DNA of 64,000 bases from an uncultured Solirubrobacteraceae bacterium (GCA_964588985.1 CAZPQW010000016.1:1-64000); one strand, 5' to 3'. Counted from the stretch's first letter, positions 47,996 through 64,000 are shown. Program-made: numbers and translations. Notes: generated by a model not told the origin, from the sequence alone.

Positions 47996-48074
47996 TCTCA
48001 GCGTGCCCGCTCGCACGAGCGGAGGTCCTATCGTGGTGGGAGATCGAAAGACCCCACGAGAAAGGCTTGATCGA

Positions 48075-48473
48075 ATGAGCGCACAGATCGACGGCAAGGC
48101 CGAGGCACTGCTCAAGGCCAAGAACTTCGCCCACGTGGCGACACTCCGCGCGGACGGCTCGGTGCAGACGGCGCCCGTGTGGGTGGACGTGCAGGACGGC
48201 CGCCCGGTGGTCAACTCAGCCGAGGGACGCGCGTGGCCGCGCAACCTCGAGCGCGACCCGCGCGTGACGCTGACGGTGCAGAACATGGAGAACCCCTACG
48301 AATACGTCGAGGTTCGCGGGCGCGTCGCCGAGCGCACCCACGAGGGCGCGGACGAGCACATCGACTCGCTCGCGAAGAAGTACATGGGCGTGGACTCCTA
48401 CCCGATGCGCCAGCCGGGCGAACAGCGCGTGATCATCCGCATCGAGCCCGAGCACGTCCACGTGCAGGGCTGA
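48075..48473 (+). CDS. PPOX class F420-dependent oxidoreductase
   Basis: ATLRADGS..PVW..RNLERDPRV..YVEVRG. Confidence 0.9.
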   Translation: MSAQIDGKAEALLKAKNFAHVATLRADGSVQTAPVWVDVQDGRPVVNSAEGRAWPRNLERDPRVTLTVQNMENPYEYVEVRGRVAERTHEGADEHIDSLAKKYMGVDSYPMRQPGEQRVIIRIEPEHVHVQG

Positions 48474-48492
48474 CAGCCGCGCCAAGCCGAGA

Positions 48493-48768
48493 TCAGACGC
48501 GACGCAACAGCCGCCGCCACAGCGACGGGGCGCGCGGCTGCGTGCGCAGCCACTCGTCGCGTAGGACCAGTTCTCCTCGAGCCCTGGCCTTCATCACACA
48601 GCGCGTGTGGGCATGGCGGCGTCGGCTGCTGTCGCCTTCGGGCTTGATCAGCATATGCTCGCTGACAGAAGCCAGATGAAGACCACATATAGGACATCGA
48701 TACGTCGCCGGCTTGAGATTGGCCGCGCTCCGTACCGTCCACCATGGAGCCGCCGGAAGGTTGGACAT
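48493..48768 (-). CDS. Small Zn-finger-like protein (91 aa)
   Basis: TYRCPICG..H..RRRHAHTRC; GACAAT box 6 nt upstream of the ATG. Confidence 0.65.
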   Translation of the reverse strand: MSNLPAAPWWTVRSAANLKPATYRCPICGLHLASVSEHMLIKPEGDSSRRRHAHTRCVMKARARGELVLRDEWLRTQPRAPSLWRRLLRRV

Positions 48769-49839
48769 CGCCCCATTGTCGCGCCGCTCGGCGCCACGCT
48801 CGCGGCCGGCGTCGCGGTGGGCGTCGCGGTCGTGCTCGCGAGGGCCACGCGCGAGCGCCGAACGCAACCGCTTCCCGACCTCGACCGGCGACTGGGCCTG
48901 AAACCCGACGAGACGCTCGCCCACGGCCTGCAGCGCATGGCGCTCGGCCAGGTCGACCTCGCGCTCGAGCAGCTCGCGGGCGCGAGCGCGGGGGAAAAGC
49001 GCGCGGAGAAAGCCGTGCACGAGACGCGCAAGGCGCTCAAGCGCCTGCGCGCGCTGCTCAGGCTGCTGCGGCGGGAGCTCGGTGAGGACGCGTTCGCCCG
49101 CGAGGACGCCGCGGTGCGGGACATCGCCCGACAGCTGTCCGGCGCCCGCGACGCGGAGGTGATGCTCGCGACGCTCGACGCGCTGATCGAGCGCCACCCG
49201 CGCAAGCTCGCGCGACGCAAGGGGGTACGCCGGCTGCGTCGAGCGCTGCTCGCCGAGCACGAGCGGACGGAGCACCAGACGCTCGGCGACGGCGCCGCGC
49301 TGGAGCACGTGCTAACGGAGCTGCGCGACCTGCGGGTGAGGGTGGTCGCGTGGCCGCTGCGCGATCGCGACGCGACGAGGCAGGTCGATGCGGGACTGCG
49401 GGATCTCTATGCCCAGGGACGCAAGCGCTACCGGCGCGCGGAGCGCACGCGGGGCAAGGACATCCACGCGATGCACCTGTGGCGCAAACGCGTCAAGGAC
49501 CTCCGCTACGTCGCGGAGATGCTCGAGCGCGGATCGAAGTCGCAGAAGAAGCGCCGCGGACGGTCGGCGCACCTGCACCGCCTGGCCGACCGCGCCGACA
49601 CGCTCGCGGAAGTCCTCGGCGAGGACCACGACCTCGCGGTGCTCGCCGAACGCGTCCGGGCGCAGGCCAAGCCGGGCAACCGAGCCCGCAAGAAGTCGAA
49701 GCGGGTCGGGCGCGCCACGCGCAAGGCGCTCTTGAAGCAGATCGCGCGTCGGCGGCGCAAGCTGCGCAGGCAGGCGCTGCGCGAAGGGGAGCGCCTGTAT
49801 CGGCGCGGCCCCAAGAGGTTCGTGCGCGAGCTCAGCTGA
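48607..49839 (+). CDS. CHAD domain (polyphosphate-binding) protein; true start uncertain
   Basis: VHETRKALKRLRALL, ARDAEV, HLWRKRVKDLRY, LGEDHDL. Confidence 0.88.
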   Translation: MGMAASAAVAFGLDQHMLADRSQMKTTYRTSIRRRLEIGRAPYRPPWSRRKVGHRPIVAPLGATLAAGVAVGVAVVLARATRERRTQPLPDLDRRLGLKPDETLAHGLQRMALGQVDLALEQLAGASAGEKRAEKAVHETRKALKRLRALLRLLRRELGEDAFAREDAAVRDIARQLSGARDAEVMLATLDALIERHPRKLARRKGVRRLRRALLAEHERTEHQTLGDGAALEHVLTELRDLRVRVVAWPLRDRDATRQVDAGLRDLYAQGRKRYRRAERTRGKDIHAMHLWRKRVKDLRYVAEMLERGSKSQKKRRGRSAHLHRLADRADTLAEVLGEDHDLAVLAERVRAQAKPGNRARKKSKRVGRATRKALLKQIARRRRKLRRQALREGERLYRRGPKRFVRELS

Positions 49840-50305
49840 CGCTGACGAGCGTCATCGTGCGCTTGCCCCTGGGCAGCGCCACCGGAACCTTGTCCCCGGC
49901 CTTGCGACCGAGCAGCGCCACCGCGACGGGGGATTCCGCCGACAGCAGCCCGTCTTTCGGGGACGCGTCGTGCGAGCTGACGATCCGCCAGGTCTTCTCG
50001 GCGCCGTCCTCGTCGCGCACCACCACCGTCGAGCCGAAGCCCACCACGCCGTCCGCGCCAGTCGGCTCTTCCTCGACCACCACCGCCTGCGCGATCTTCT
50101 CGCGCAGCCTCGCGATCTTCGTCTCGAGGTGCGCCTGGTCGTTCTTCGCGTCGTGGTACTCGCTGTTCTCCTTCAGGTCGCCCCATTCGCGCGCGGTTTT
50201 GATCCGTTCCGCGATCTCGCGACGACCCGTGTCCTCGAGCGACTCCAGTTCCGCCTTCAGGGCCTCCAGGCCCTCAGCCGTTGTCAGGTTGCTCGCCTCG
50301 GTCAC
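49832..50305 (-). CDS. greA: Transcription elongation factor GreA
   Basis: AREWGDLKENSEYHDAK, SAESPVAVALLG. Confidence 0.92.
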   Translation of the reverse strand: MTEASNLTTAEGLEALKAELESLEDTGRREIAERIKTAREWGDLKENSEYHDAKNDQAHLETKIARLREKIAQAVVVEEEPTGADGVVGFGSTVVVRDEDGAEKTWRIVSSHDASPKDGLLSAESPVAVALLGRKAGDKVPVALPRGKRTMTLVSVS

Positions 50306-50350
50306 CGCCGTCCAGCCTACTCCACCCGCCACGCACGCCGAGCTATAGAT

Positions 50351-51631
50351 CTAAAAATAGGTGCTCGCCGGCGAGGACAGCAGCGCGTAGATCTGCGCCA
50401 CCGCCGCCTGGTAGAGCAGTTGCGCCGACGGCGGCGTGCCCGCCACGAACACGTCGTCGGTCAGGCGCCTGTACTGCCACGCGTAGTTGACGTAGTTCTG
50501 CGCCGGCGCCTTCCCGGGCGGGTCGTGCGTGATCGAGTCGAGGTACATCAGGTTGCGAAAGAACACCGCCGGGAAGAACGGGTTCTCGCCGGCGAGCCGT
50601 TCCGGCGTGAAGTACGCCACCGCCGCCCGCGCGGTCTGGCGGGCCTGGTAGAGAAAGCCCGCGTTGCCTGTCGCCTGGTAGAGCATCGCGCCCGCGCCGA
50701 TCATCGTGCCCTGGTTGTAGCTCCACAGCGATCCTTCCACCACGCCCTTCGGGTTGACGTGGTCGGCGTACAGTTCGCCCGGCGCCAGCAGGCAGGTGCG
50801 CACCCACTGGTAGGCCATTTCCGCGAACCGCAGGTACTCCGCGTTGTGCGTCAGCCCGTACAGCTGCAGCGCCAACTCCGCCGCCGGCGCGGTCGTGACC
50901 GTGTTGCGGTCGGTGTTCGTCGCGGCGTTGTCGAACGGTATGCCGCCCGGGCAGCCCAGTTCCGGGTTCGTCTGCCACGCAGCTGTCTCGAACGCCATGA
51001 TCGCTTCCGCGCTTTCGCGCACCGACGGTTCGTGGGTCAGCTTGTACAGCCGCACCAGCTCGATCCCCACCCAGTCGTTGTCGTCGTAGTACTTCGTGCC
51101 GCCCGGCCCCGCCGGCGGCGCCACCGTGCCGTCGAACGCCGCCAGCGTGCTCGTGAACACGCCTTCTTCCGCACCCGAGTTGTTCGCGTCGAGATACGAG
51201 CGCAGGCCCACCTCGCGGGCTTTCAGTTCGCGCGCCATCGACACCCCCAGGTGCGGGATGTTCGCCAGGCTCACCGTCACCGCGAGCGCCTGCGAGAACG
51301 GCCACAGATACGAGAACGGTTCGCCCGCGTACAGGCCCGAGCCGAGCAGGTAGTAGTGCGCCTGCATCGCTTCGAACGCCGCCAGCGCCCGCGCCGGGTT
51401 GCCCCGCAGTTTCGCCTTCTTGGACTTCTTCTTCTTCGATTTCGAAGCGGAGGCGCGCGCGAATTCCGAGACGCGCGGATGGAACGCCGCGCGTGTCGCG
51501 CCCGCCGGGTAATGCGACGGATCGGCCTGTGCCCGTGCAGCGCTCGCGGCCCGCGCGGTGGGGGCCGCGCTGAGCAGCAGCACGCCACACAGGATTCCGA
51601 GCGCGTGTCTGTGGCGGAGGCCGGCGATCAT
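50351..51631 (-). CDS. Secreted glycoside hydrolase family 76
   Basis: Signal peptide; YYDDNDW catalytic DD; WSYNQG. Confidence 0.88.
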   Translation of the reverse strand: MIAGLRHRHALGILCGVLLLSAAPTARAASAARAQADPSHYPAGATRAAFHPRVSEFARASASKSKKKKSKKAKLRGNPARALAAFEAMQAHYYLLGSGLYAGEPFSYLWPFSQALAVTVSLANIPHLGVSMARELKAREVGLRSYLDANNSGAEEGVFTSTLAAFDGTVAPPAGPGGTKYYDDNDWVGIELVRLYKLTHEPSVRESAEAIMAFETAAWQTNPELGCPGGIPFDNAATNTDRNTVTTAPAAELALQLYGLTHNAEYLRFAEMAYQWVRTCLLAPGELYADHVNPKGVVEGSLWSYNQGTMIGAGAMLYQATGNAGFLYQARQTARAAVAYFTPERLAGENPFFPAVFFRNLMYLDSITHDPPGKAPAQNYVNYAWQYRRLTDDVFVAGTPPSAQLLYQAAVAQIYALLSSPASTYF

Positions 51632-51676
51632 CGAAGTCAAGCAAACACAACCGGCGACGGCGCCATTCGATTTGGT

Positions 51677-52528
51677 ATGAAGGCGGTCTTGCACTTCGAC
51701 TACGCCACCGTCGGGCACGTCGCGGTCGACGTGCTCCCCGACGGCTCGCGCCGCGCCGGCGGGGCGGCGTTCTACAGCGCGTTGCAGGCCGCGCGGCTGG
51801 GTCTGAGCGCATTGGTCGTCACGCGCGGCGTGCCCGAGGAGATCGAGGAGCTGCTCGCGCCCTACAGCCACGAGCTCGAGCTGCGGATCCTCCCCGGCGA
51901 GCACACCACCACGCTGCTCACCTCCGGCGCGGGCGCCGAGCGCAGCCAGTGCGTGTCCGCGTGGGGCGGTCCGATCGACGAGGACCTCGAGCTCGACGGC
52001 TCGATCGTCCACATAGCGCCGGTCGCGCGCGAGACCCCCACGCGCTGGCGCGGGCGCAGCGAGTTCGTCGGGCTCACGCCGCAGGGGCTCGTCAGGCAGT
52101 GGCCGGGCGAGGATCGCCGGATCGCGCTCACCGCGCCCACCCCCGTGAGCGAACGCGTCGCCGACGGCTGCAACGCGGTCGTCGTCAGCGAGCACGAGCG
52201 CGCCGCCTGCTCCACGCTGATCGCGCGAGCGCTGTCCGCCGGCGCGGTCGTAGCGGTCACCGACGGCGCCGAGCCCAACACGCTGCTGCTGGGAGACGGT
52301 CGGGAGCTCGCGCTGGATGTGCCCTCCATCGACGTCGCGCGCGACGACCTCGGCGCCGGCGACGTGTTCGCCGCCGCGTTCTTCGTCGCGCTCGCCGAGG
52401 GACAACCGCCCGCCGACGCAGCCGGCTTCGCCAACGCCGCCGCCGCCGTGCGCATGCAGGGCGAGGGAGCCGGCGCGGTCGGCGATCGCGACGCCGTCCT
52501 GGCGCGGCTCAGCGCCGTGAGTGGCTGA
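51677..52528 (+). CDS. PfkB family carbohydrate kinase
   Basis: GGAAFY..VTDG..DDLGAGDVFAAAF. Confidence 0.88.
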   Translation: MKAVLHFDYATVGHVAVDVLPDGSRRAGGAAFYSALQAARLGLSALVVTRGVPEEIEELLAPYSHELELRILPGEHTTTLLTSGAGAERSQCVSAWGGPIDEDLELDGSIVHIAPVARETPTRWRGRSEFVGLTPQGLVRQWPGEDRRIALTAPTPVSERVADGCNAVVVSEHERAACSTLIARALSAGAVVAVTDGAEPNTLLLGDGRELALDVPSIDVARDDLGAGDVFAAAFFVALAEGQPPADAAGFANAAAAVRMQGEGAGAVGDRDAVLARLSAVSG

Positions 52529-52540
52529 GAGGCAACGGCC

Positions 52541-53587
52541 TCAGCCGGCGAGCGCCGCGTCGATCTTCCGCGCCAGCTCCCGCACGTCGACCCGCTCGCT
52601 CGCGCCACACGCGCGGACCGCCAGAATCAGACTGCCGCCCACCGGCGCCATCTCCACCTTCGCCACGCGCGCACCCGGCGCGCACGCGTGGATCGCACGG
52701 GTGAGCGGCTCCACGAACACGGGGCCAGCCTTGAACGCGCTGCCGATCAGTCCCACGGGGAACACCCCGTCGCCAGACGCTTCCTCGCCCGCCAGGCACG
52801 CCCGGCGGATGACCGCCGCGATCTGCTCGCCCAGCTCGCGTGCGCCCCGCTCGTACAGCGCGCGCGCCACCACGTCGCCACGCTCCGCGAGCTTCGCCGT
52901 CTCCGTCGCGAACGCCGCGATCTCGCCCTTGGTGAGCGGCTTGGAGTACACCAGGTGCGCCGCCGCCTCCACGCTCGGCGCGTCGAAGAACTCCATCGCC
53001 GCCTCGCTCAGCCCGGTCGGCGGGCCGGATGACTCGCGGTCGCGCAGCGCCGCCTTGATCGACTGCACACCCAGCCAGTAGCCCGAGCCCTCGTCGCCCA
53101 GCACGTGCCCCCAGCCGCCCGCGCGCCACGCGCGCCCGTCAGGCCCCACGCCGAACACGTTCGAGCCCGTGCCCGAGATCACCGCCACCCCCGGTCCGCC
53201 GCCCGTCGCCGTCGCCCACGCGCCCACCACGTCGTTCACCACGATCCACGCCTCGGTGCGCGCGGCACGCACGTGCCCCGCGATCGAGTCGGTGTTCGTG
53301 CCCGCCACCGCGATCACCGCCGTCGTCAGCTGCCCACCGTCTATCCCCGCGCTCCGCATCGCGCTGTCGGCCGCGCCCAGCAGCGCATCCACGGCCGCCC
53401 TCGCGCCGACCGCGTCCTCGTTGCTCGGACCGCCGTGGCCGATGTGCACCGACCCGCTGTCGAGGTCGAGCACCGCCGCGAGCGTCTTCGTCGCGCCGCC
53501 GTCGACCCCGAGCACGTAGCGCGCGCCCTCGCGGGTCTGGGGATGCGTCAGCGCCGGCGGAAGCTGTACGAGAGGATCGCGGCGCAT
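52541..53587 (-). CDS. N-acetylglucosamine kinase-like (BadF/BadG/BcrA/BcrD ATPase family)
   Basis: GVDGGATKT, ISGTGS, GGWGHVLGDEGSGY. Confidence 0.9.
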   Translation of the reverse strand: MRRDPLVQLPPALTHPQTREGARYVLGVDGGATKTLAAVLDLDSGSVHIGHGGPSNEDAVGARAAVDALLGAADSAMRSAGIDGGQLTTAVIAVAGTNTDSIAGHVRAARTEAWIVVNDVVGAWATATGGGPGVAVISGTGSNVFGVGPDGRAWRAGGWGHVLGDEGSGYWLGVQSIKAALRDRESSGPPTGLSEAAMEFFDAPSVEAAAHLVYSKPLTKGEIAAFATETAKLAERGDVVARALYERGARELGEQIAAVIRRACLAGEEASGDGVFPVGLIGSAFKAGPVFVEPLTRAIHACAPGARVAKVEMAPVGGSLILAVRACGASERVDVRELARKIDAALAG

Positions 53588-53676
53588 TGGCGCAGATCCT
53601 CCCAGGATTCACGGATGGGCACGCGCAGTCGGAAATCGCGCGCGCGTGGATTCAACCATCTAGGATCGAGCCCGCC

Positions 53677-54654
53677 ATGGACGCCGCCGCCATCTTTCCC
53701 TCCGCGCGGATGCGCGCGGGGATGTACGAGTCCTTCTACCTGCGCGCGGTCTCGCCCAGCGAGCCGGTGGGCGTGTGGATCCGCAACACCGTCCACAAGG
53801 CGCCCGGGCGCCCGCCGCAGGGCTCGGTGTGGTGCACCGTGTTCGACGCCCGCGCCGGCGCGCCCTTCATGCACAAGCACAGCACGCACCAGCTGAGCGT
53901 CCCCGCCGGCGGCTGGATCGCGATCGGCCCAGACACCAGCATGGGAGCCGGCCGTGCGCAGGGAAGCTGCGGCCCCGCACGCTGGTCGCTGACCTACTCG
54001 AGCGCTGAGCCCGAACTGCGCCACCTCTCCCCCGAGTGGCTCTACCGCATGCCGCTGCCGCGCACCAAGCTCACCAGCCCCGCGCCCGCCGCCGCGTTCG
54101 ACGGCGTGCTCGAGCTGGACGGACGCGACCCGATCGAGCTGAGCGGCTGGCGCGGCATGGTCGGCCACAACTGGGGCAGCGAGCACGCCGAGCGCTGGAT
54201 CTGGCTGCACGGGATCGACTTCGCCGACACGCCCGACGCGTGGCTCGACGTGGCCCTCGGCCGGCTGCTCATCGCCGGCCGCATGACCCCGTGGGTGGCC
54301 AACGGCGTGCTCAGCCTCGACGGCCGCCGCCACCGTCTCGGCGGCCTCGGCGCGCGCGGGCTGCGGGTGAGCGAGAGCGCCCAGGGAGCCGTGCTGGAGA
54401 TCCCCGGCGGGCACGGCCTGTCGCTGCGGGCGCGCGTGGACGTTCCGCCCGGGTCGGCCGCCGGCTGGCGTTACGCGGACCCCGACGGCGGCGAGCACGA
54501 CGTCGTCAACTGCTCCGTCGCCGCGCTCGAGCTGACCGTCGAGCGGGAGGGCGCCCGGTCCAGGACGCTGCGGACGGAGCAGGGCTGCGCGTATGAGTTG
54601 GGGATGCGCGAGCGCGACCACGGCGTCGCGATCGCCCCGTTCTCCGACGGCTGA
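53677..54654 (+). CDS. Hypothetical protein, possible tocopherol-cyclase/lipocalin-like fold
   Basis: YESFYL..GHNWGSEHAERWIW; Trp-rich beta pattern. Confidence 0.75.
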   Translation: MDAAAIFPSARMRAGMYESFYLRAVSPSEPVGVWIRNTVHKAPGRPPQGSVWCTVFDARAGAPFMHKHSTHQLSVPAGGWIAIGPDTSMGAGRAQGSCGPARWSLTYSSAEPELRHLSPEWLYRMPLPRTKLTSPAPAAAFDGVLELDGRDPIELSGWRGMVGHNWGSEHAERWIWLHGIDFADTPDAWLDVALGRLLIAGRMTPWVANGVLSLDGRRHRLGGLGARGLRVSESAQGAVLEIPGGHGLSLRARVDVPPGSAAGWRYADPDGGEHDVVNCSVAALELTVEREGARSRTLRTEQGCAYELGMRERDHGVAIAPFSDG

Positions 54655-54659
54655 CTCAG

Positions 54660-54961: not shown

Positions 54962-56713
54962 ATGCCCAAGCTCGATCCGGCCGATCTGCCATATGCAGGG
55001 CATTCCACCATGCAAGAGCCGCAGATCACAACACCGCAGCCCGGGCCGACCGCCGACCCGACGCTCGACGGGCAGCGCCTCACGGTCGCGGCCGAAGCGC
55101 TGCTGCGCGAGCATCCCGACGCTTATGTGTGCGGGCTCGCCGCCAACGGGCTGATAGTTCCCGTGCCGCAGACCGTTGGCCTGTGGGGCCAGGGGCTGAT
55201 CGAGGGCCGGGCGCTGATCGATCACGTGGTGGCGGCCGATCGCATCACCGTCACCAGGCTGTGGGTGCGCATCCAGGAGGAGGGCGCCGCCTCGGCGAAG
55301 GTGCGGATGCTGCGCAAACCGACCAGCTGGGCGACGCTTCACTTCCTCGACCTGCGCGAAATCCACGGCGTGCTGCTCGGCATCGTGATCCCCAGCTCCG
55401 AGGAGGCCCAGGACGCCGGCGAGCTCGAGGAGCTGCCGTTCGCCGCGCCTCGCTTCTGCTCGCTGATGGAGGACGAGACGGCCAAAGTGCTCGACTGCGA
55501 CGACGCCTTCACGGAGATGTTCGGCTACACGCTGGAGGAGCTGCTCGGCGAGTCCGTGCTCGACCAGATCCACCCCGACGACCAGGGCCGCGCGGTGGAG
55601 GGCTGGCTGGCGGTCGTCTCCACCAACCGCGACCAGCAGACCCGCCTGCGCCGCAGGCGCAAGGACGGGACGTGGATGTGGGTCGACACGACGCTTCGCA
55701 ACTACCTCAACCAGCCCGGACGCAACCACGTGCTGGTGGAGATGATCGACATCTCCGCCGAGATGCAGGCCCACGAGGCGCTCCAGGAACGCGAGGAGCT
55801 GCTGCGGCGCCTGACGAACGCGATGCCCGTCGGGCTGCTGCACCTCGACGTGGAGCGCAGCGTCGTCTACCACAACGCCAGACTGCTGGACATCCTCTAC
55901 GGCTCGGACGCGAGCACACCCGAGCAGACCGTGGCCGAAGAGACGCCCGCAACCGGGAGCTCCAACGCGGACGCCGACACCGCGAGCACGCTGCTGCAGA
56001 CGCTGAGCGACGAGGGCAGGGCGGCCTTCGACGCGGCGCTCGCGGAAGTGCTCGGCGAGGGCGCCGATCGCGACGTCGAGGCCGACATCGTGCTGCCCAT
56101 GGGCGCGTGGCGACGCGCGCTCTTCAGCCTGCGTGCGCTGCTGCGCGCGAACGGCGAGGTGAGCGGCGCGATCACCTGCGTGCTCGACGTGACCGACAGC
56201 GCCCGCGCCCGCGAGGAGCTCGAGAAGCGCGCCACGTACGACACGCTCACGCTCTGCCGCAACCGCTCGTCGATCATCGCCGCCCTCGAGCACGAGCTCG
56301 AGCGCGAGGACGGCGCGCGCACGGGCGCTGTCTACGTCGACCTGGATCTCTTCAAGCCCGTCAACGACACCCTCGGGCACGCCGCCGGCGACGAGCTGCT
56401 GGCGCTCGCCGGCGAGCGCCTCAGGCTCGCGAGCCGCGACAGCGACGTCGTGGGGCGCCTCGGGGGCGACGAGTTCCTCGTCGTCCTGCGCGACGTCCCC
56501 GACACCGACACCGCCGTGCGCGTCGCCAACCGCATCAGCGAGGTGCTGTGCGGGACGTGCGAGCTCTCCTGCGGCAGCGTCGAGCTGCGCGCGAGCATCG
56601 GCGTCGCGTGCTCGGCCGACGAGACGATCACGGCCGAAGAGCTCGTCAAGCGCGCCGACGCCGCGATGTACGCGTCAAAGGACCAGGGCCGGTGCGCGCC
56701 CGTCCTCGCCTGA
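54962..56713 (+). CDS. PAS-domain diguanylate cyclase
   Basis: IHPDD PAS/PAC motifs; RDSD I-site; RLGGDEF; start may be 55010. Confidence 0.93.
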   Translation: MPKLDPADLPYAGHSTMQEPQITTPQPGPTADPTLDGQRLTVAAEALLREHPDAYVCGLAANGLIVPVPQTVGLWGQGLIEGRALIDHVVAADRITVTRLWVRIQEEGAASAKVRMLRKPTSWATLHFLDLREIHGVLLGIVIPSSEEAQDAGELEELPFAAPRFCSLMEDETAKVLDCDDAFTEMFGYTLEELLGESVLDQIHPDDQGRAVEGWLAVVSTNRDQQTRLRRRRKDGTWMWVDTTLRNYLNQPGRNHVLVEMIDISAEMQAHEALQEREELLRRLTNAMPVGLLHLDVERSVVYHNARLLDILYGSDASTPEQTVAEETPATGSSNADADTASTLLQTLSDEGRAAFDAALAEVLGEGADRDVEADIVLPMGAWRRALFSLRALLRANGEVSGAITCVLDVTDSARAREELEKRATYDTLTLCRNRSSIIAALEHELEREDGARTGAVYVDLDLFKPVNDTLGHAAGDELLALAGERLRLASRDSDVVGRLGGDEFLVVLRDVPDTDTAVRVANRISEVLCGTCELSCGSVELRASIGVACSADETITAEELVKRADAAMYASKDQGRCAPVLA

Positions 56714-56826
56714 CAAGCGGAACGGCTCGCGCAGAGAACGCAGAAGGGCGGGAAGTCAGGAGCCCGTTACGAGCGCCCGCTCCCCGCCCTCGAGCGAGAT
56801 TGCGAATCTAACCTAGGCGGCGAGGA

Positions 56827-57558
56827 CTATTCGAAGCCGAGGTTTCCCCCGATCAGTTCCTCGTGCAGCACACCCCTGTAGGAGCCGGTTTTGGCTTCGG
56901 GGTGTTTGAATTCCGAGCACTCGCCTTCTTCGAAGCTGAATTCCATGTTCTTGAATTCAGTCGAGATCTGCAGCTCCTTCTGGAAGCCGGTCGGGAACGC
57001 CTTGAGGTGCGTGCTCGCGACTTCTTCGTTCGAGAACAGAGCCGCCGAGTACTGTTCTTCGGGTTTGGCGATCGCCCTCATCGGCACCGTCTGAGCGGGC
57101 CAGCTGATCAGGCACTTGATGCCCGTGATTTTCAGTTCGGCCGCGCCGCTGCCGATTTCAACCGAGCCTTCTTCGCCTTCCGTGCCGACTTCGGCGGAGC
57201 CGTTGGCGTGGAAGCTGTATTCGACCGGCGCCAGGAACCTGGTCTTCAGCGTCGCTGGTTCCGCGCCGACTTTGATCGACGTCGTGCAGCCGTGGTATTT
57301 GGCCACGACCTTCAGCGTCGCGGACGCTTCTTCGGTCACGATCCCCTTCGTGCCCGCGCTTTCGCAGGTTGTGTGGATCGGTCCGAATTTGAACGCCTGC
57401 GGCCCGACGCTGCCGCCCTTGACCTTGCCCGGCGTCGCTTCGGAAATCGTCTTTTTCGCGATGCTGGCCGTAAAGGTGTGGGCCATCGCGGCGGTGGCGC
57501 TGAGCGCAACCGCGCACACGGCAGCCATCAGCCCGAGTGTGATCCTCACGCGTCTCAT
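56827..57558 (-). CDS. Secreted hypothetical protein (243 aa, paired Cys)
   Basis: Signal peptide ending AAMA; AGGAG SD. Confidence 0.85.
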   Translation of the reverse strand: MRRVRITLGLMAAVCAVALSATAAMAHTFTASIAKKTISEATPGKVKGGSVGPQAFKFGPIHTTCESAGTKGIVTEEASATLKVVAKYHGCTTSIKVGAEPATLKTRFLAPVEYSFHANGSAEVGTEGEEGSVEIGSGAAELKITGIKCLISWPAQTVPMRAIAKPEEQYSAALFSNEEVASTHLKAFPTGFQKELQISTEFKNMEFSFEEGECSEFKHPEAKTGSYRGVLHEELIGGNLGFE

Positions 57559-57986
57559 TCTCCTAGGTCCTCGCTTTCGCCCCGGAAGGCTAGATTCGGC
57601 TAGTTGTTGTCAACCTGATGCCGCCCGCGGGTACTTGGGTTCCCCTCCACAGACCCCGAGATGGCGGGCCGAGCATACCATAGGCGCACCGTCCGAAACG
57701 CAGCGCAGAACCTGCCGACATCCAGTATCGGTGGGGAAAATCGCGGACATGGCCGACTCAAAACTCAACCCGACCCGTCACAACCGCTCGACATCTCGTT
57801 TGCATGACGTTCACAAGCGATGATGCTGGACGCTAGCGTACCCAATCGTTTCGCATCGCGCTCCCCGGGCTTAGCTCTGTATTAGGCGCGGCTGGCAGTC
57901 TCCCCTCATGGCTCTACCCTCCCAGGCGTAGGGCCAGGGCCCATCGGACCACCATTCACGGGCCCGCAACCAAGAGCGCACAACCC

Positions 57987-58700
57987 ATGGCCGGTACACC
58001 CAAACGGAAGATCATGATCGGCGTGGCCGTGCTCGCGATCCTCGTCGGGACGGTCCTTGCGATCGTGACGGCCTCCGGCTCGAGCGAGGGGCCGCTGGTA
58101 CGTCCGCACCACGATGCGGATGCTCGCGACAGTCGCGGCGATCTCGCGCTCGCCTCCGCCTACCTCGGCGTCTCCAGGGCGCAGCTTCGACACGAGCTGA
58201 GCTCCGGCTCGACGCTCGCCGACATCGCCAACGCGACCAGCGGGCACTCCGCGTCCGGCCTAGAGCATGCGATGTTCGCGGCCAGAGCGGCGCGCCTGAG
58301 CGAAGCTGTCTCCACGGGAGCGCTGTCCAAGGCCAAGCAGACGAGCAGACTTGCGAGGCTGTCCGAACACCTCGCCGCCGAGATCTACCGTCAGCACACC
58401 GTCAACGCCGGATCCGGCGACATCGCGACCGCGGGCGCCTATCTCGGGCTCACGACCAGGCAGATCCGCGACGAGCTGCGCTCCGGACGCTCGCTCGCCC
58501 AGATCGCGGCCGCCAGGGCGGGGAAGTCCGCCGGCGGCCTGATCCACGCGCTCGTGACCGCCAAGCGCGCCGCGCTCGCGGCCGCCGTCCACTCGGGGAC
58601 GCTCAGCCGCTCGGCCCAGAGCACGATGAGCGCCGAGCTCGAGCGACGGGCGACCGCGGAGGTCGACCGCGTGCCTTCCAAGCGCGCCGCCCGCGGCTGA
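57987..58700 (+). CDS. Exported/membrane-anchored protein with two internal helical repeats
   Basis: AYLGVSRAQLRHELSSGSTLADIA and AYLGLTTRQIRDELRSGRSLAQIA. Confidence 0.8.
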   Translation: MAGTPKRKIMIGVAVLAILVGTVLAIVTASGSSEGPLVRPHHDADARDSRGDLALASAYLGVSRAQLRHELSSGSTLADIANATSGHSASGLEHAMFAARAARLSEAVSTGALSKAKQTSRLARLSEHLAAEIYRQHTVNAGSGDIATAGAYLGLTTRQIRDELRSGRSLAQIAAARAGKSAGGLIHALVTAKRAALAAAVHSGTLSRSAQSTMSAELERRATAEVDRVPSKRAARG

Positions 58701-58717
58701 CGGTCGGGCCGCTCCGT

Positions 58718-59086
58718 TCAGGCCCCCGCCGGGTCCTCCAGCCTGAAGTGCGGGTTCTCGATGATGCCGATCGGCGAGCCCAGCGGGCTGTCCACGCTCG
58801 CCACGCGAATCCCGTCGCCCACGTCGTGGACCGCGCTGCGCTCCGTCGCGCCGTGCGACAGCAGCCACGCCATGCCCGCATCCGCGTCGTCCACGCCCCA
58901 GTAGGTCATCGGACCGTCCGCCGCGGGCATGTCCGGGTTCAGGCCCAGCTCGTAGCCGCCGACGTTGTAACCGACGTAGAACGGCTCGTCGAAATACGGG
59001 GCGATCCCGAGCAGGTCCGTGAACCAGCGCTTGGCCTCGTCGAGGCTCGGCGCCGGGTAGATGATCGTTCGCAGGCCGAGGAACAC
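58718..59086 (-). CDS. VOC family protein
   Basis: GLRTIIY..YVGYNVGGYELGL..DVGDGIRVA..GIIENP. Confidence 0.88.
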   Translation of the reverse strand: MFLGLRTIIYPAPSLDEAKRWFTDLLGIAPYFDEPFYVGYNVGGYELGLNPDMPAADGPMTYWGVDDADAGMAWLLSHGATERSAVHDVGDGIRVASVDSPLGSPIGIIENPHFRLEDPAGA

Positions 59087-59245
59087 AGGTGCAAGTTTCA
59101 CATAGCGAGAGGACGGCACTTTCGCGCGCGCCGGCTGACTTTGCACTCGAAAATGCAGACGTAAGGCTTCTTTCTGAGGCCGTCGATGTCCCCGTCAAAG
59201 GACACGTGTGTGTCCGTATCCAAAAGACCAACAAGGGGGCACAAC

Positions 59246-59704
59246 GTGTTCATGCACCTTGGCAGGCGCAACAAAAGCGCCGGCCGCAAACGTAAGACCG
59301 CGGCGCTGCTTGCGCTCGTGCTTGCAGCCATGATCGGGGTGGGCGCTTACGCGTTTACCGCGAGCAACGAAATCAAAGCTCGGTACGCAGGTGCCGGCAC
59401 AGCGACGGTCAGCGGCTACACGAACGCCAAAGACGTCAGCTACACGTGGAACGAAGCAGGCACCAAGATGACCGCCACCAACTTCGTGTTGGAAGGCAGC
59501 GAAATCCCGTCCGACGTCAAGGTCGCCCTGACCGAAGGCGCTCCGAAAACAGCCGACTGGGTCGACTGTGCAGGCAGCGGTGGAGAAATCAAAGAACTCA
59601 CCGCAACGACGTTCGAAGTCTCCTGCAAATTCGAAGTGGAAAACAAACTAGGTGACAACCTGGCAGTAGCAGCAGTCAGCGAAGGCACCGTGGTCATCGA
59701 ATAA
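59246..59704 (+). CDS. Pilin/TasA-like secreted protein with SipW-class signal peptide
   Basis: Basic N-region, hydrophobic helix, GAYAFTASN; AAGGGGG SD; one Cys pair; directly upstream of a SipW-type peptidase. Confidence 0.75.
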   Translation: MFMHLGRRNKSAGRKRKTAALLALVLAAMIGVGAYAFTASNEIKARYAGAGTATVSGYTNAKDVSYTWNEAGTKMTATNFVLEGSEIPSDVKVALTEGAPKTADWVDCAGSGGEIKELTATTFEVSCKFEVENKLGDNLAVAAVSEGTVVIE

Positions 59705-59720
59705 CGAGACCCATGGGCTC

Positions 59721-59751
59721 GCGGAGCGGCCGGAAACCCCGGCCGCTCCGC
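59721..59751 (+). terminator. 13-bp hairpin between the pilin-like gene and the peptidase gene
   Basis: GCGGAGCGGCCGG-aaacc-CCGGCCGCTCCGC. Confidence 0.7.
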
Positions 59752-59764
59752 ACCTTTACCAGTC

Positions 59765-61648
59765 ATGAAACCGAGACTCGTCAAACGAATCGCATCCAGC
59801 GCCCTAGGACTGATCGTCCTGGGGCTCGTGTGGTTCTACACGGCACCGACGGGCTTCGGCGGCTCCACGACCTACGTGGTCACACACGGAGTCAGCATGG
59901 AACCTCGCTTCCACACGGGCGACCTCGCGATCGTTCGCAGCCAGAGCAGCTACCACGTGGGCGAAGTCGTCGCCTACGAGAGCAAGATGCTCGGCACCGT
60001 CGTGCTGCACCGGATCATCGGCAAGACCGGCGACCGGTACCTGTTCAAGGGCGACAACAACCACTTCATCGACTTCGAACATCCGACCGCCAAGCAGCTG
60101 GTCGGCTCGCTGCGGCTGCACATCGCGGGCGCGGGCGCGGAGTTCCAGTCGATCCGATCCCCGGCGCTCGTCGGGATCCTCGTCGCCGTCGCGATCCTAC
60201 TGCTCACCGGAGGCGTGTTCACCAAACGCCGCAGGCGCAGGCGCAGGCAGGCGCAGGACGATGTGCAGACCACCCAGCACCAGCCGATGCGAGCACTGAA
60301 GCGCCCCTCCGAGCACGCGACCGGCGTACTCACGGTCGGCCTGATCGCCCTGTTCCCGTTCGTGCTGCTCGCGCTGCTCGCGTTCACCCGTCCGCCCACC
60401 GCACGGCGGCCCTCAGAAATCTCCTACAAGCAGAGCGGCAAGCTCTCATACTCGGCGCACGCGACGCCTGGACCGACCTACGCGAACAACGTCGCCCAGA
60501 CCGGCGACCCGCTCTTCACACGCGTCGTCAACGACGTCGACCTGCACTTCGAGTACCGGCTCGACACGACCGCCAAGCAGTCGCTCGCCGGAGCCGCCTA
60601 CATGTCCGCGAACGTCGCATCGACGAGCGGCTGGCACACGACGCTCGCGCTCGGCGGCACCACCCGCTTCCACGGCAACCGCGCGACCGTCGACGCGACG
60701 CTCGGCCTGAACTCGCTTTTCGACCTGCTCCATCGCGTCCAGGCCACCACGGGGGTCAGCAGCGGCTACACGCTCACCCTCGTTCCCCACGTCAGCACGC
60801 ACGGGACGATCGACTCCAAGCCGCTGCACGCGACGTTCGCGCCGCAGATTCCCTTCACCGTCACCCCGCTCGAGGTCGAGCCCGTGGCGGCCAGTACCAG
60901 CACGACCACCACCACCGACGCGAAACCAGCGAAGAGCCCCTTCGCGCCCGCCGCGTCCGGCACGGTGAAGGGAACCGACTACAAGCCGCTCTACCTCCCG
61001 CTCGGGTTCGCGCGTCCGTCCGTGTCCACCGCGCGCCGTGTCGCGCTGGGCGGGATCGCGCTCGTCGTGCTCGTGCTGCTCGGGGTCCTCGCCCTCCCCC
61101 GGCCACGACGCAAGGCCGAGTCGACGACCATCCGTTCGCGTTACGGGCGCATGGTCGTGCAGGTGGATCGCGTCTGGCAGCTGCCCGGGGTGCCAGTGAT
61201 CGACGTCGCGGACATGGACGCGCTCGCTCGGATCGCCGAACACTACGATCGCTCGATCCTGCACGAGACCACCGACGAAGGCGAGGCCTTCTGGGTCACC
61301 GACGAGAGCGGCCAGTTCCGCTACGCGATCGGCGTGTGGGCGCCCGCGGCGCTTGCCCCGGAGGCGATCGGCGAGCAGATCGCGGCCGAGGCTCCCCTCT
61401 ACCCGGAGCCAGAGGCGCCGGCCGAGGAGCTTCCGTACGAACCGTTCACCGGCCAGGCCCACACCGCCGAGATCCCGCTCGGCGGGTTGGTGTCCGTGTA
61501 TGAGACCCAGCCCGCGCCCGAGATCTTCGCGAGCGCCCCGGTCGTGGAGGACTGGGCCGCCCACGACGCCGCCGACGCGATCGTGCGCGAATGGCGCGCG
61601 GGGTGGGACACGGCGGATGTGACGCGGACGTCGAGCAGCCCCGTCTGA
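59765..61648 (+). CDS. Signal peptidase I (SipW/S26B type) fused to a DUF5305-like membrane-anchored domain
   Basis: GVSMEP (Ser), VLHRII (His), KGDNN; further TMs, extracellular beta domain, C-terminal VIDVADMDALARIAE. Confidence 0.85.
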   Translation: MKPRLVKRIASSALGLIVLGLVWFYTAPTGFGGSTTYVVTHGVSMEPRFHTGDLAIVRSQSSYHVGEVVAYESKMLGTVVLHRIIGKTGDRYLFKGDNNHFIDFEHPTAKQLVGSLRLHIAGAGAEFQSIRSPALVGILVAVAILLLTGGVFTKRRRRRRRQAQDDVQTTQHQPMRALKRPSEHATGVLTVGLIALFPFVLLALLAFTRPPTARRPSEISYKQSGKLSYSAHATPGPTYANNVAQTGDPLFTRVVNDVDLHFEYRLDTTAKQSLAGAAYMSANVASTSGWHTTLALGGTTRFHGNRATVDATLGLNSLFDLLHRVQATTGVSSGYTLTLVPHVSTHGTIDSKPLHATFAPQIPFTVTPLEVEPVAASTSTTTTTDAKPAKSPFAPAASGTVKGTDYKPLYLPLGFARPSVSTARRVALGGIALVVLVLLGVLALPRPRRKAESTTIRSRYGRMVVQVDRVWQLPGVPVIDVADMDALARIAEHYDRSILHETTDEGEAFWVTDESGQFRYAIGVWAPAALAPEAIGEQIAAEAPLYPEPEAPAEELPYEPFTGQAHTAEIPLGGLVSVYETQPAPEIFASAPVVEDWAAHDAADAIVREWRAGWDTADVTRTSSSPV

Positions 61649-61677: not shown

Positions 61678-63153
61678 TTACGCCGGAGAGGCTCCGCGAC
61701 TCGCAAGCTGTCCTACGAACCGCACCGCCCCTGGCATCCGGCGCGCGAGCGCAACGGCAACACGATCTGAGCGGCGCATGTACCCTGCCGCCCCGTCGAG
61801 CTCGGCCTGCGGTGCGCGCTCCTCATCCAGAGCGTAGAGGCGCCATGAGCCGGGAACGCCCTTCAGCTCGTGCTCGCCGCGGCTCGTGAACAACATGTTC
61901 GAGCCGACGACGAGCTCCTTGACAGTCGAAGAGACCACGATCTCGCCGGGTTCCGCGAGCGCGCCGACGCGGGCGCCGATGTGGACGGCCAAACCACCGA
62001 GATCGTCACCGACCACCTCGCACTCGCCGGAGTGGATACCGCTGCGCAAACGTATTCCGAGCTCCGCGACGCCCTCGCGTATCGCCTCAGCGCAGCGCAT
62101 CGCGATCGCCGGCCCGTCGAACGCGGACAACGACCCGTCACCGATGTGCTTCACGACTCGGCCGCCGTGCTCGGATACGGTCCTGTCTACGAGTTGGTCG
62201 TGGCGCTCCAGCACCTCTCGCCAGGCGCGATCGCCGAGCTCCGCCGCGCGCGACGTCGAGGCCACGATGTCCGTGAACAGCACGGTCGCCAGTATCCGGT
62301 TCGGCTCTGTGCGGTGCACGGCGCCGGTGACGAACCGCTCGACCTCCTCCACCAGCCCATCGGCGAACCAGAAGGCGTGATCGACACCCGGGAGCGTGAC
62401 GAGGCGGGCGCCGGTTATCCCATCCGCAAGCTGCTGGCCGGCCTCCACCGGAATGATGCTGTCGTCGACCGCATGCACCACAAGCGTCGGCATGCGCACC
62501 GCCGACAGGACGTCGCGCACATCGATCCGTACCACGGTTTCGATGAGGGCTCGGGCCATTCGCGGGCTCGCCGCGGCCCTCGCGAACATCCCGAACCCGC
62601 GCTTCTGCGACTCGGTCATGGTCACGCTCGGGGCCAGGGTCTTCATCAGCATGCCCCCGTCACCCCAATGGTCGAGTATCTCGTCGAAATCCTCGAAGCT
62701 GCGTTCCGCGCGCTGGAGGACCTCAGCTGGCCACGTCTCGCGGGCAGCCTCCATCGCGCATGCGAACGCCCCGAACAGCACCAGCAGCGAGACCCGCTCC
62801 GGATGCATCGCTGCCATCAGCACCGCCGCGGGACCACCCTCCGAGACACCCAAGAGCGCGGCCCGGCGCGAGCCCGCCGCGTCAAGGACCGCGTCCATGT
62901 CGGCCACGCGCTCCTCGAGCGTCGGCAGCTGCCGGACCGGGTCCGACAGACCGGTGCCGGGCTTGTCGTAGATGATCAGCCGCGCGAATGAAGCAAGGCG
63001 GCCCATGAAGCGCGCCATCGCAGGCTCTGCCCACTGCAGATCCAAGTGCGAGATGAAGCCCGGCGACAGGAGCAGATCGACCGGACCGTCGCCCACCACC
63101 TGATAGGCGATCGAGATCCCGTCTCGCTCGACGTACTGCGTCTGCGGCTGCAC
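61678..63153 (-). CDS. Alpha/beta hydrolase-adenylate cyclase fusion (LipJ-like)
   Basis: GVSEGG nucleophile motif; LFTDIVAST, KHIGDG, GLAVHIGARV. Confidence 0.92.
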   Translation of the reverse strand: MQPQTQYVERDGISIAYQVVGDGPVDLLLSPGFISHLDLQWAEPAMARFMGRLASFARLIIYDKPGTGLSDPVRQLPTLEERVADMDAVLDAAGSRRAALLGVSEGGPAAVLMAAMHPERVSLLVLFGAFACAMEAARETWPAEVLQRAERSFEDFDEILDHWGDGGMLMKTLAPSVTMTESQKRGFGMFARAAASPRMARALIETVVRIDVRDVLSAVRMPTLVVHAVDDSIIPVEAGQQLADGITGARLVTLPGVDHAFWFADGLVEEVERFVTGAVHRTEPNRILATVLFTDIVASTSRAAELGDRAWREVLERHDQLVDRTVSEHGGRVVKHIGDGSLSAFDGPAIAMRCAEAIREGVAELGIRLRSGIHSGECEVVGDDLGGLAVHIGARVGALAEPGEIVVSSTVKELVVGSNMLFTSRGEHELKGVPGSWRLYALDEERAPQAELDGAAGYMRRSDRVAVALARRMPGAVRFVGQLASRGASPA

Positions 63154-63362: not shown

Positions 63363-63632
63363 ATGTCCGCTGTCGGCTCACAACCAAGGCTGCTCTCCAC
63401 AAAGCAGGCCGCCGAGCTGCTCAACGTCAGCAGACGCACGATCCTCAACTGGATCGAGGCGGAGAAGATTCCCTACCTCAAGCTGCCAGGTGGGGACTAC
63501 CGCGTCCCACTCGCCGGCCTGCTCGCCTCGCTGTCCGGCACCTACCGCCTGGATGAGGAGATCCGGGCGCTGGATCAGCGATTCGCAGGAGTCAGCGACC
63601 AAGACGTACAAGCCGCTCTCGCAGACCTCTAG
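63363..63632 (+). CDS. Excisionase-type HTH (HTH_17) protein, putative antitoxin
   Basis: LLSTKQAAELLNVSRRTILNWIEAEKIP..GGDYRV; GAAGGA SD. Confidence 0.85.
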   Translation: MSAVGSQPRLLSTKQAAELLNVSRRTILNWIEAEKIPYLKLPGGDYRVPLAGLLASLSGTYRLDEEIRALDQRFAGVSDQDVQAALADL

Positions 63633-63664
63633 CCTCGAGATCGGCGTCCGGTAGACCATCGCCA

Positions 63665-64000
63665 GTGCGTCCCGTCGTGCTAGACACCAGCGTGATCCTG
63701 CCGGCGGTCATCTCCCCGAGGGGCTACCGCCGACGCTTCTGGGTGCTGCTGGCGTTCGGCGCACTCGCCGAACGACGCGACCTCGCCCGCCTGCAAGACG
63801 GAGCACCACGAGCTGGCGCACACGAGGCACTGCGCGGGCATGACATCGCCTCGCTGGCAGCACAGGCGGAAGCCAGATATCAGCGCCTCCGTGACGCCCT
63901 GCCGTCCAGCTGCCCCGATCACTGGCGACTCATCGGCTCGCGCCCTCTACTCGCCGAGTACGAGCGCAAGCTGCACGAGATCGGGCCGAGACTCGATCCC
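63665..64000 (+). CDS. PIN domain (VapC-like) protein, partial
   Basis: Not in the ORF track. Manual translation from GTG 63665 gives RPVVLDTSVILPAVISPRG..LIGSRPLLAEYERKL, open to the window end. Confidence 0.75.
   Translation, partial: MRPVVLDTSVILPAVISPRGYRRRFWVLLAFGALAERRDLARLQDGAPRAGAHEALRGHDIASLAAQAEARYQRLRDALPSSCPDHWRLIGSRPLLAEYERKLHEIGPRLDP

Follow-up and report, generated by a model that had tools for sequence, protein, structure and literature searches.

What is the function of a short exported protein whose gene is followed directly by that of an unusual signal peptidase? The question is raised by a gene pair at positions 59246-61648, plus strand, of a 64,000-nucleotide stretch of DNA from an uncultured Solirubrobacteraceae bacterium (GCA_964588985.1 CAZPQW010000016.1:1-64000), which was analysed at full length and is called the window below. 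The upstream gene encodes the small protein, referred to here as the subunit, and the downstream gene encodes a 627-residue fusion of a signal peptidase with a DUF5305 module. Because the association of the subunit with a peptidase and DUF5305 is conserved both strictly and widely, the safe conclusion is that the two proteins are a dedicated maturation pair, and we hold this with high confidence. By analogy with fibres of archaea and Bacillus, the pair most likely builds a surface fibre related to those biofilm fibres. Assembly of such a surface fibre through donor-strand exchange is the best single mechanism that we can offer, and our confidence in it is evenly balanced.

The subunit and its mature N-terminus

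The subunit gene has the following features.

59233-59239, plus strand: Shine-Dalgarno-like AAGGGGG, 6 nt 5' of a GTG at 59246 and 12 nt 5' of the ATG at 59252
59252-59704, plus strand: subunit gene, an ATG open reading frame (ORF) for a 150-residue precursor; the alternative GTG start at 59246 gives 152 residues
59252-59353, plus strand: signal peptide, residues 1-34, with an RKRK n-region, a 17-residue h-region and A-Y-A at -3 to -1
59354-59410, plus strand: conserved mature N-terminal segment (FTASNEIKARYAGAGTATV), a candidate donor strand on the basis of its conservation and low predicted local distance difference test (pLDDT) values

An earlier reading of this DNA, made from the sequence alone and called the sequence-only reading here, had noticed a small exported protein with AYA-FTASN at the end of its signal peptide, and the gene indeed encodes it. 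By hydropathy the precursor has a single hydrophobic segment, residues 17-35, following a start rich in lysine and arginine. The cleavage region reads G-V-G-A-Y-A/F-T-A-S-N, where the slash marks the predicted cut and A-Y-A/F-T-A-S-N runs from A32 to N39. Cleavage after A34 would leave a mature form of 116 residues with a computed mass of 12.1 kDa and an isoelectric point (pI) of 4.5.

The precursor was aligned with close relatives (alignment A1) and with distant members of the family, 38 in number (alignment A4). No part of the subunit is better conserved than its cleavage box and mature N-terminus. Mean column identity was 0.98 in A1 and 0.77 in A4 for the cleavage box (residues 32-39), 0.72 and 0.62 for the mature N-terminus (35-58), and 0.55 and 0.37 for the core (59-150). 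Residues A32, Y33, A34, F35, T36 and A37 were invariant in 32 of 32 close relatives, and the consensus of the 38 distant members reads AYAFTASNTVP..AG.G..ISGYTVSNV.YTL. Across these distant members G47, C106 and C125 are invariant, and the two cysteines are invariant in the close relatives as well.

An AlphaFold2 (AF2) model of the subunit monomer, with a mean pLDDT of 72.8, consists of the signal-peptide helix followed by a six-strand immunoglobulin (Ig)-like core with pLDDT ~90. Residues 31-53 have pLDDT <50 and adopt no confident structure in this model. A three-copy multimer prediction of the mature subunit (residues 35-150, with A1) gave ipSAE values of 0.30, 0.36 and 0.23 against a mark of 0.42, in a run made without controls.

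The family to which the subunit belongs is sizeable and carries almost no names. A word-index search returned 93 relatives that are unnamed or 'hypothetical', with the exception of a lone enzyme name that agrees with none of the other entries, and the median identity of the subunit to its relatives is 47%. An exhaustive profile search of a representative library, with clustering at 50% identity, reached 1144 clusters at E<=1e-3, of which 205 passed 1e-10 and 20 passed 1e-30; most members are 120-150 residues long. The subunit matched no Pfam or NCBIfam model at cutoff, none of the 47 clusters scanned from the 150 listed did so at the curated cutoffs of these libraries, and in a library scan no family recurred among the 38 members of A4. 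A sequence search of the PDB with the subunit profile gave nothing meaningful, and a search of the ESM Atlas gave unnamed clusters only. The genome carries a single subunit gene.

The fusion of a signal peptidase with a DUF5305 module

The downstream gene and the parts of its product are these, with transmembrane (TM) segments numbered from the N-terminus.

59765-61648, plus strand: fusion protein, signal peptidase plus DUF5305, a 627-residue ORF defined with hidden Markov model (HMM) matches
59789-60220, plus strand: TM1 (residues 9-27), extracytoplasmic Ser/His peptidase domain (28-133) and TM2 (134-152), from TIGR02228 and hydropathy
60326-61339, plus strand: DUF5305-type module, made up of TM3 (188-206), an outer beta-sandwich (207-425), TM4 (426-444) and a cytoplasmic alpha/beta part (445-525)
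61340-61648, plus strand: acidic Pro/Ala-rich C-terminal tail (526-627) and stop codon; pI 4.05, poorly conserved

The sequence-only reading had described a 627-residue protein with a Ser/His peptidase of the endoplasmic reticulum (ER) type, and this description held. Residues 14-143 matched TIGR02228, the archaeal-type signal peptidase I model, with 65.0 bits, above the cutoff of 51.85, and with 67.5 bits when the whole genome was searched; we take peptidases of this type to be MEROPS S26B. The fusion also matched PF00717 (27.5 bits, cutoff 23.3) and scored 24 bits against the bacterial-type TIGR02227, below its cutoff of 47. Residues S44 (in GxSMxP), H82-R83, G96-D97, N99 and D103 were invariant in 29 of 29 aligned fusion homologues, and from work on Sec11 and SipW we assume the Ser/His (plus Asp) to be the catalytic set. 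The nearest solved sequences to the peptidase part were human SEC11A/C (E 2e-7), with bacterial signal peptidase I at 0.013. By sequence the enzyme is an ER/archaeal-type signal peptidase I with a predicted Ser/His mechanism. It is SipW-like in its predicted working, yet is not a SipW orthologue; the earlier identification as SipW itself fails on a score of 28.3 bits for the SipW equivalog NF046067, where 190 is the cutoff, and on the presence of a classical SipW/TasA locus on contig C14 of the same genome.

Hydropathy gave four hydrophobic segments, listed above as TM1 to TM4. Stretches rich in lysine and arginine occur at the N-terminus, in the loop 153-187 (RRRRRRR) and after TM4, and are the predicted cytoplasmic sides, an orientation in which both the peptidase domain and residues 207-425 are extracellular. 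The Pfam DUF5305 model (PF17231) matched residues 427-514 with 28.0 bits, for a cutoff of 29, and only profile positions 125-211 of 217 were covered; precomputed Pfam lists contain PF17231.8 on the identical protein and on many fusion homologues. The AF2 model of the fusion had a mean pLDDT of 60.9 and was poor in the peptidase part (<50). Residues 190-525 reached pLDDT ~80-95, with strands at 212-408, a helix at 420-443 and an alpha/beta part at 450-522. The resulting layout of TM segment, extracytoplasmic beta-sandwich, TM segment and cytoplasmic alpha/beta part matches the DUF5305 architecture described in bioRxiv 10.64898/2026.01.04.697558. Since the HMM match, the modelled layout and the described architecture coincide, we regard the protein as a peptidase and a whole DUF5305 module in one chain.

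This revises two features of the sequence-only reading. In place of a separate anchor domain plus a DUF5305-like piece, TM3, the outer domain, TM4 and the cytoplasmic part form one DUF5305-type module. The extracellular beta domain is present, though its size is ~200-220 residues and not the ~230 first proposed. The suggestion that the fusion anchors or nucleates a fibre found no support apart from the protein's position in the membrane; the two papers that discuss DUF5305 propose a signal-peptidase accessory role.

In the alignment of 29 homologues the cytoplasmic alpha/beta part is the most conserved stretch of the fusion. The C-terminal tail is disordered (pLDDT ~30), and its length varies among homologues. 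At least 655 homologues were found at E<=1e-3; those listed are 50-100% identical and are mostly named 'signal peptidase I'. Fold searches with the fusion gave weak beta-sandwich matches for the outer domain, in Foldseek to AF_0446 (3but, E 3e-4) and the TMEM106B lumenal domain, and in VIA to RbmA (Z 8.3) and YEATS (Z 8.2). No accessory subunit of the signal peptidase complex was among the fusion fold matches listed by the two methods. Elsewhere in the class the two parts of the fusion are encoded by adjacent or separate ORFs (G197:C8:680950-682391 and G182:C8:673020-674165), and split and fused forms thus coexist in the class.

Conservation and distribution of the gene pair

In a genome scan with one genome per species, 257 stretches encoded a relative of the fusion. 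The counts below use the best 78 of these loci, all from metagenome-assembled genomes (MAGs) labelled Solirubrobacteraceae or Solirubrobacterales, in which the fusion is 47-62% identical. Conservation of the two genes had been named as a check on the sequence-only reading, and the outcome was clear: at each of the 78 loci the ORF immediately upstream of the fusion lies on the same strand and matches the subunit HMM. The spacer between the genes measures 55-318 nt, with a median of 83.

The distant subunit clade (alignment A5) then served as query in a metagenome scan, which matched 309 stretches, of which 79 loci were kept. A peptidase/DUF5305 match was found at 56 of the 79 loci, including all eight loci with >=1.5 kb of sequence on both sides and 24 of the 30 with >=1.5 kb on one side. 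One ORF spans the peptidase and DUF5305 in 20 metagenome loci. Two to four tandem subunit paralogues occur in 20 of the 79, as they do in pilin loci. The arrangement of the pair is far beyond chance.

The pair is also sparsely distributed. Among genomes sampled from the class it was present in 19 of 301, the window's own counted, and it was present in 3 of 120 other sampled genomes of the organism's GTDB family, all three of one genus. It was not found in three same-genus genomes that are 94-97% complete. The window holds the genome's only rpoB, whose product is 94% and 92% identical to RpoB of two MAGs labelled Solirubrobacteraceae and Solirubrobacterales and 76% identical to that of two other genomes of the same class; on these identities the placement in Thermoleophilia made by the sequence-only reading is reasonable. 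Mis-binning of the contig, C16, was considered and rejected, as it carries the only rpoB and a same-genus genome has an identical 39-residue RpoB end.

The intergenic hairpin

The spacer of the window contains one further element.

59721-59751, plus strand: hairpin with a perfect 13-bp stem and a 5-nt loop, 16 bases 3' of the subunit stop codon

The hairpin ends 13 nt before the peptidase start codon, and the fusion ORF starts without a Shine-Dalgarno sequence. Its strength, remarked on in the sequence-only reading, was confirmed by a folding energy of -36.7 kcal/mol, compared with -19.6 +/- 2.6 kcal/mol for 200 shuffles (z -6.6), none of which was as good. A hairpin is present in the subunit-fusion spacer of 78 of 78 related loci, where the best 46-nt window has -30.2 kcal/mol or lower. 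As a control, 310 segments of 88 nt were drawn at random from these loci; 39 of them reach -25 kcal/mol and only 4 reach -30 kcal/mol. The stem sequences differ between clades, and compensatory double changes were seen at five of seven consensus pairs. The hairpin is a real, conserved RNA-level element. The idea that it is a dispersed repeat was rejected, the arm sequence occurring nowhere else in the genome as a hairpin.

Pilin operons provide an analogy in which a hairpin goes with a high ratio of subunit to enzyme. On this analogy it is plausible that the hairpin sets a high subunit-to-peptidase ratio here, as the sequence-only reading had it. The locus was found in 24 DNA datasets, mostly rhizosphere metagenomes, with no RNA dataset among them.

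Relation to known fibre systems

The literature search turned up no account of the small-subunit family or of such a system in Thermoleophilia, although the homologue tables in the supplements of the DUF5305 papers may list Actinomycetota loci. This agrees with the remark of the sequence-only reading on Thermoleophilia; the same fusion architecture is on record from other bacteria. Some bacterial signal peptidases, from Actinoplanes and Tepidiforma, contain a DUF5305 domain (PMC11821415), and DUF5305 is described as a putative signal peptidase I accessory protein that is sometimes fused to the peptidase, as in E8MZY1 from Anaerolinea thermophila (bioRxiv 10.64898/2026.01.04.697558).

The closest precedents come from archaea. 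The Tat-fimbriae (Tafi) of Haloarcula hispanica consist of TafA, TafC and TafE, and deletion of the signal peptidase TafD abolishes both the processing of TafA and the fimbriae (PMC11821415). TafG, the DUF5305 protein of the Taf cluster, is the proposed partner of TafD, and other archaea also encode it next to the peptidase (PMC11821415). The same paper describes Sec-dependent clusters of a peptidase, DUF5305 and DUF1102 in Thermococcales and Archaeoglobales, with subunits of 150-200 residues for which donor-strand exchange is predicted. The cryo-electron microscopy structure of the TafE pilus revealed assembly by strand donation, and the pilus has a role in biofilm formation (PMC12337348).

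The window holds what defines a Tafi-like gene cluster, a subunit gene next to a signal peptidase and DUF5305. In both systems an ER/archaeal-type signal peptidase I and a DUF5305 module adjoin small exported beta-sandwich subunits (150-200 residues in Tafi). Sec-type signal peptides occur in the Tafi versions of non-halophiles, and extra exported tip or adaptor proteins of ~130-300 residues are a further likeness. The differences are that the peptidase and DUF5305 are one polypeptide here, whereas TafG is a separate protein in archaea, and that the present host is bacterial (Solirubrobacterales), its fibre being a predicted one. In addition, the subunit is smaller, with 116 residues in its mature form, and matches no DUF1102, TasA or Taf-related Pfam model.

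AbpX, from Pyrodictium abyssi and with bacterial and archaeal homologues, resembles the subunit in being acidic (pI ~4-4.5) and in having a conserved aromatic residue at the start of the mature N-terminus. It likewise has a dedicated TIGR02228-type peptidase, a signal peptidase I with a DUF5305 accessory protein. The AbpX-associated peptidases are described, however, with ten TM helices, compared with four in the fusion, and AbpX (163 residues when mature) clusters by sequence with the TasA superfamily, which the subunit does not.

The TapA-SipW-TasA operon of Bacillus subtilis, like the locus on contig C14 of the present genome, has a dedicated ER/archaeal-type Ser/His peptidase beside its substrate. 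The cleavage motifs are also alike, following the pattern small-aromatic-Ala / aromatic or Thr-Thr/Ser, with GAYA/FTAS in the subunit and GTFA/TFTSS in the TasA-like protein of C14. In the Bacillus operon TapA is a third exported partner, an analogy for a possible third partner here. The Bacillus system differs in that SipW has no DUF5305 module, and the subunit for its part has no PF12389 or TIGR04088 match.

A more distant comparison is with the eukaryotic signal peptidase complex. The catalytic domain of the fusion is closest by sequence to SEC11A/C, and a further likeness is that membrane-spanning accessory parts extend to either side of the membrane, a comparison made in bioRxiv 10.64898/2026.01.04.697558. 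This is an analogy only; no accessory subunit fold of the complex was among the matches listed. Taking these systems together, the best explanation by analogy is that the pair would serve the export and maturation of a small surface-fibre subunit and would correspond, in a bacterium, to the archaeal Tafi/AbpX loci and to Bacillus TasA/SipW.

Fibres that assemble through donor strands and depend on dedicated ER-type signal peptidases for their maturation form a theme that crosses the domains of life and has been seen only recently, in TasA, AbpA, Tafi and AbpX. In this setting the locus is a compact bacterial version, with one subunit gene, one enzyme gene, and the peptidase and DUF5305 covalently joined. 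It comes with hundreds of natural variants and with a subunit family that neither Pfam nor NCBIfam contains. Ideas on what DUF5305 does are so far conjecture, and both its function and a possible coupling of cleavage to polymerisation become directly testable questions. A fibre would add a likely matrix component to the Solirubrobacterales, abundant and poorly studied bacteria of soil and rhizosphere. If the subunit does not polymerise, the pair would still illustrate clearly how a signal peptidase can be reserved for one cognate substrate.

A proposed mechanism and its alternatives

We infer a mechanism in which cleavage by the fusion at AYA/F leads to polymerisation and in which the hairpin and two neighbouring genes, described in the last section, have a part. 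The 150-residue precursor would be exported by the Sec pathway, its Lys/Arg-rich n-region having no conserved twin arginine. The fusion enzyme, with Ser44/His82 and the DUF5305 accessory module in the same chain, would then cut after A-Y-A and free the invariant N-terminus F-T-A-S-N. This N-terminus, unstructured in the monomer model, would act as the donor strand and enter the six-strand core of the next subunit to give a chaperone-free fibre; polymerisation by such donor-strand exchange is plausible from the model. The GC-rich hairpin and the peptidase start without a Shine-Dalgarno sequence probably keep expression of the subunit far above that of the peptidase, whether by partial termination, by making the subunit transcript more stable at its 3' end or through inefficient re-initiation. 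The PAS-GGDEF gene, a common neighbour, suggests control linked to cyclic di-GMP (c-di-GMP), and hence to biofilm formation. The exported neighbour exp243, whose N-terminus bears F-x-A-S, is a candidate for a minor, tip or nucleator subunit.

A bolder version, which we consider rather unlikely, is that the family is a new class of very small (~116 residues) donor-strand subunits in soil Actinomycetota and Chloroflexota, without sequence kinship to TasA, and that the fusion also hands over the N-terminus. The outer beta-sandwich of the fusion may in that case hold the cleaved N-terminus for the growing fibre, coupling cleavage to polymerisation or anchoring, and the conserved cytoplasmic module may link to c-di-GMP signalling from the neighbouring cyclase.

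Several results weigh against a fibre built in this way. The subunit would be cut at a common A-x-A, a site open to a housekeeping signal peptidase as well, and the genome encodes a third, weak S26-like match on contig C6. The sequence-only reading had proposed a check with the HMM of the SipW-cognate signal peptide, and neither that model (TIGR04088, NCBIfam, E<=10) nor PF12389 (Pfam, E<=0.1) gave a subunit match. Comparison of A4 with the genome's own TasA family (alignment A7) by hhalign gave a probability of 2.4% over 13 columns. Foldseek against pdb returned nothing at E<=1e-3 for the subunit model and only generic Ig and fibronectin type III (FnIII) domains, and VIA likewise returned only generic Ig/FnIII domains with a best Z of 6.4. 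No TasA, AbpA, Taf or chaperone-usher pilin was among the subunit fold matches listed, although a missing fold match to TasA/AbpA/Taf pilins does not exclude kinship. In 6 of the 30 metagenome loci with >=1.5 kb on one side there is no adjacent peptidase, and the patchy occurrence in the organism's own GTDB family implies that the pair is dispensable. The hairpin, for its part, has no T-run/U-tract, was not among the sites of a consensus terminator scan, and is therefore not a canonical intrinsic terminator.

The strongest competing explanation, to which we give a minor share of our confidence, keeps the dedicated pair and makes the subunit a monomeric or layer-forming secreted or surface protein, such as a coat, an adhesin or a hydrophobin-like Ig-fold protein. 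The conserved N-terminus would then serve only for recognition by the peptidase or for a later modification. Conservation of the pair speaks for dedicated processing and not for polymerisation, and the generic Ig-like fold without specific pilin matches, the missing profile link to TasA and the lone subunit gene in this genome all suit such a protein. Against it, all described systems in which this peptidase type goes with DUF5305 form donor-strand fibres or are predicted to do so. The subunit is conserved for ~20 residues beyond the cleavage site, a longer stretch than a signal peptidase normally requires for recognition. The unstructured N-terminal segment of the monomer model and the tandem paralogues in relatives also favour assembly. 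We therefore prefer the donor-strand fibre because it has precedents in the enzyme set and accounts for an N-terminus that is both conserved and disordered, for the six-strand core and for the paralogue arrays of relatives.

Two other explanations would dispense with cleavage by the fusion or with its relevance. It is improbable that the subunit escapes cleavage, remains anchored in the membrane by its N-terminal helix and serves the peptidase-DUF5305 enzyme as a partner or regulator, much as small subunits do in the eukaryotic signal peptidase complex, with the real substrates, exp243 for example, encoded elsewhere. The strict co-occurrence of the two genes would fit a partner, the highly conserved h-region and AYAFTA box might reflect helix-helix contacts, and exp243 has a similar F-x-A-S motif. 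However, an A-x-A after the h-region with glycines at -6 and -4 is a textbook signal peptidase cleavage site, and the subunit shows this pattern after a 17-residue h-region. Its strong Shine-Dalgarno sequence and the hairpin suggest expression far above that of the enzyme, unlike a stoichiometric partner, and the paralogue arrays of relatives fit structural subunits better. Least likely of all, and disfavoured by us, is a subunit resembling type IV pilins or archaellins, with a hydrophobic N-terminal helix that is retained and assembly by a type IV machinery, the peptidase being incidental. The top Foldseek matches of the whole model do include 5tfy, an archaellin (E 0.015), and 6w8u, a pilus of Pyrobaculum (E 0.052), and VIA gave Z 6.0 for 5tfy, but these scores lie within the generic Ig-like background. 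The class III motif, a Gly or Ala before the hydrophobic stretch, is missing between the RKRK n-region and the h-region, and what adjoins the subunit gene at each of the 78 loci is a signal peptidase I of the Ser/His type rather than an aspartyl prepilin peptidase.

Neighbouring genes and other loci of the genome

Three genes upstream of the pair, and one locus on another contig, bear on its surroundings.

54962-56713, plus strand: PAS-GGDEF diguanylate cyclase (Pfam GGDEF 122.8 bits, PAS_3 67.7 bits)
56827-57558, minus strand: exp243, a 243-residue exported protein of no known family, divergently transcribed, with no Pfam/NCBIfam match
57987-58700, plus strand: tm237, a 237-residue protein with an N-terminal TM segment and helical repeats, with no family match
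Contig C14, L001:980-3321, minus strand: classical TasA/SipW locus of the same genome

Matches to the cyclase, by tblastn, occur in 30 of the 78 loci, upstream and on the same strand; about 22 of them have ~65-77% identity over most of the protein. The exp243 family HMM matches 32 of 78 loci, in 31 of them on the opposite strand within ~2.5 kb upstream. With these neighbours, and with two to four paralogues in distant relatives, the description as a minimal two-gene machine given by the sequence-only reading is too narrow.

The signal peptide of exp243 has the form MRRVR...A-x-A and is followed 0-10 residues later by an F-x-A-S motif in which F29 is nearly invariant. The motif reads AMA/HTFTAS in the window and FG(K/E)F(T/I/V)AS in most relatives, resembling the FTAS start of the mature subunit. 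A detectable paralogy between the two proteins was rejected, as hhalign gave 15% over 10 columns and BLASTP nothing. From its sequence exp243 is a candidate second substrate or minor/tip subunit. The third gene, tm237, encodes two internal repeats of ~25 residues, each starting with AYLG and ending with IA, and in 22 of 78 loci a homologue occupies the position immediately before the subunit gene.

Identities to the window are uneven along three of the related loci (L058, L060 and L076), in which exp243 is 83-86% identical, the subunit 46-47% and the fusion 51-54%; a glyoxalase-like gene is 88% identical between the window and L058. The mosaic of exp243 against the pair suggests cassette exchange or replacement, or diversifying selection on the pair. 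Judged from sequence comparison, window positions 54962-61648, from the GGDEF gene to the fusion, behave as a variable island. Two same-genus genomes align with window positions 48052-54655 only, and neither has the pair. In one Solirubrobacteraceae MAG the cyclase is in synteny and the pair lies on another contig.

The locus on C14 encodes a TasA-family protein of 205 residues (PF12389, 34.6 bits; TIGR04088, 19.2 bits for a cutoff of 19) whose signal peptide ends ...GLGTFA/TFTSS, a stand-alone SipW-type peptidase of 203 residues (TIGR02228, 78 bits), and a third exported protein of 149 residues with an FnIII-like tail. The TasA protein has 3631 matches, and the 120 best listed are 76-100% identical.

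Directly downstream of the fusion and convergent with it, window positions 61678-63153 (minus strand) encode a 491-residue protein combining an alpha/beta hydrolase with a class III adenylate/guanylate cyclase, a gene conserved in only 2 of the 78 related loci. Window positions 63363-64000 (plus strand) hold a gene for an 89-residue HTH_17 (excisionase-type) protein followed by an ORF starting MRPVVLDTSVILPAV. The truncated ORF has no Pfam match and, from its motif, presumably encodes a PIN-domain toxin. Together with the HTH_17 protein it may form a toxin-antitoxin pair at the edge of the window.

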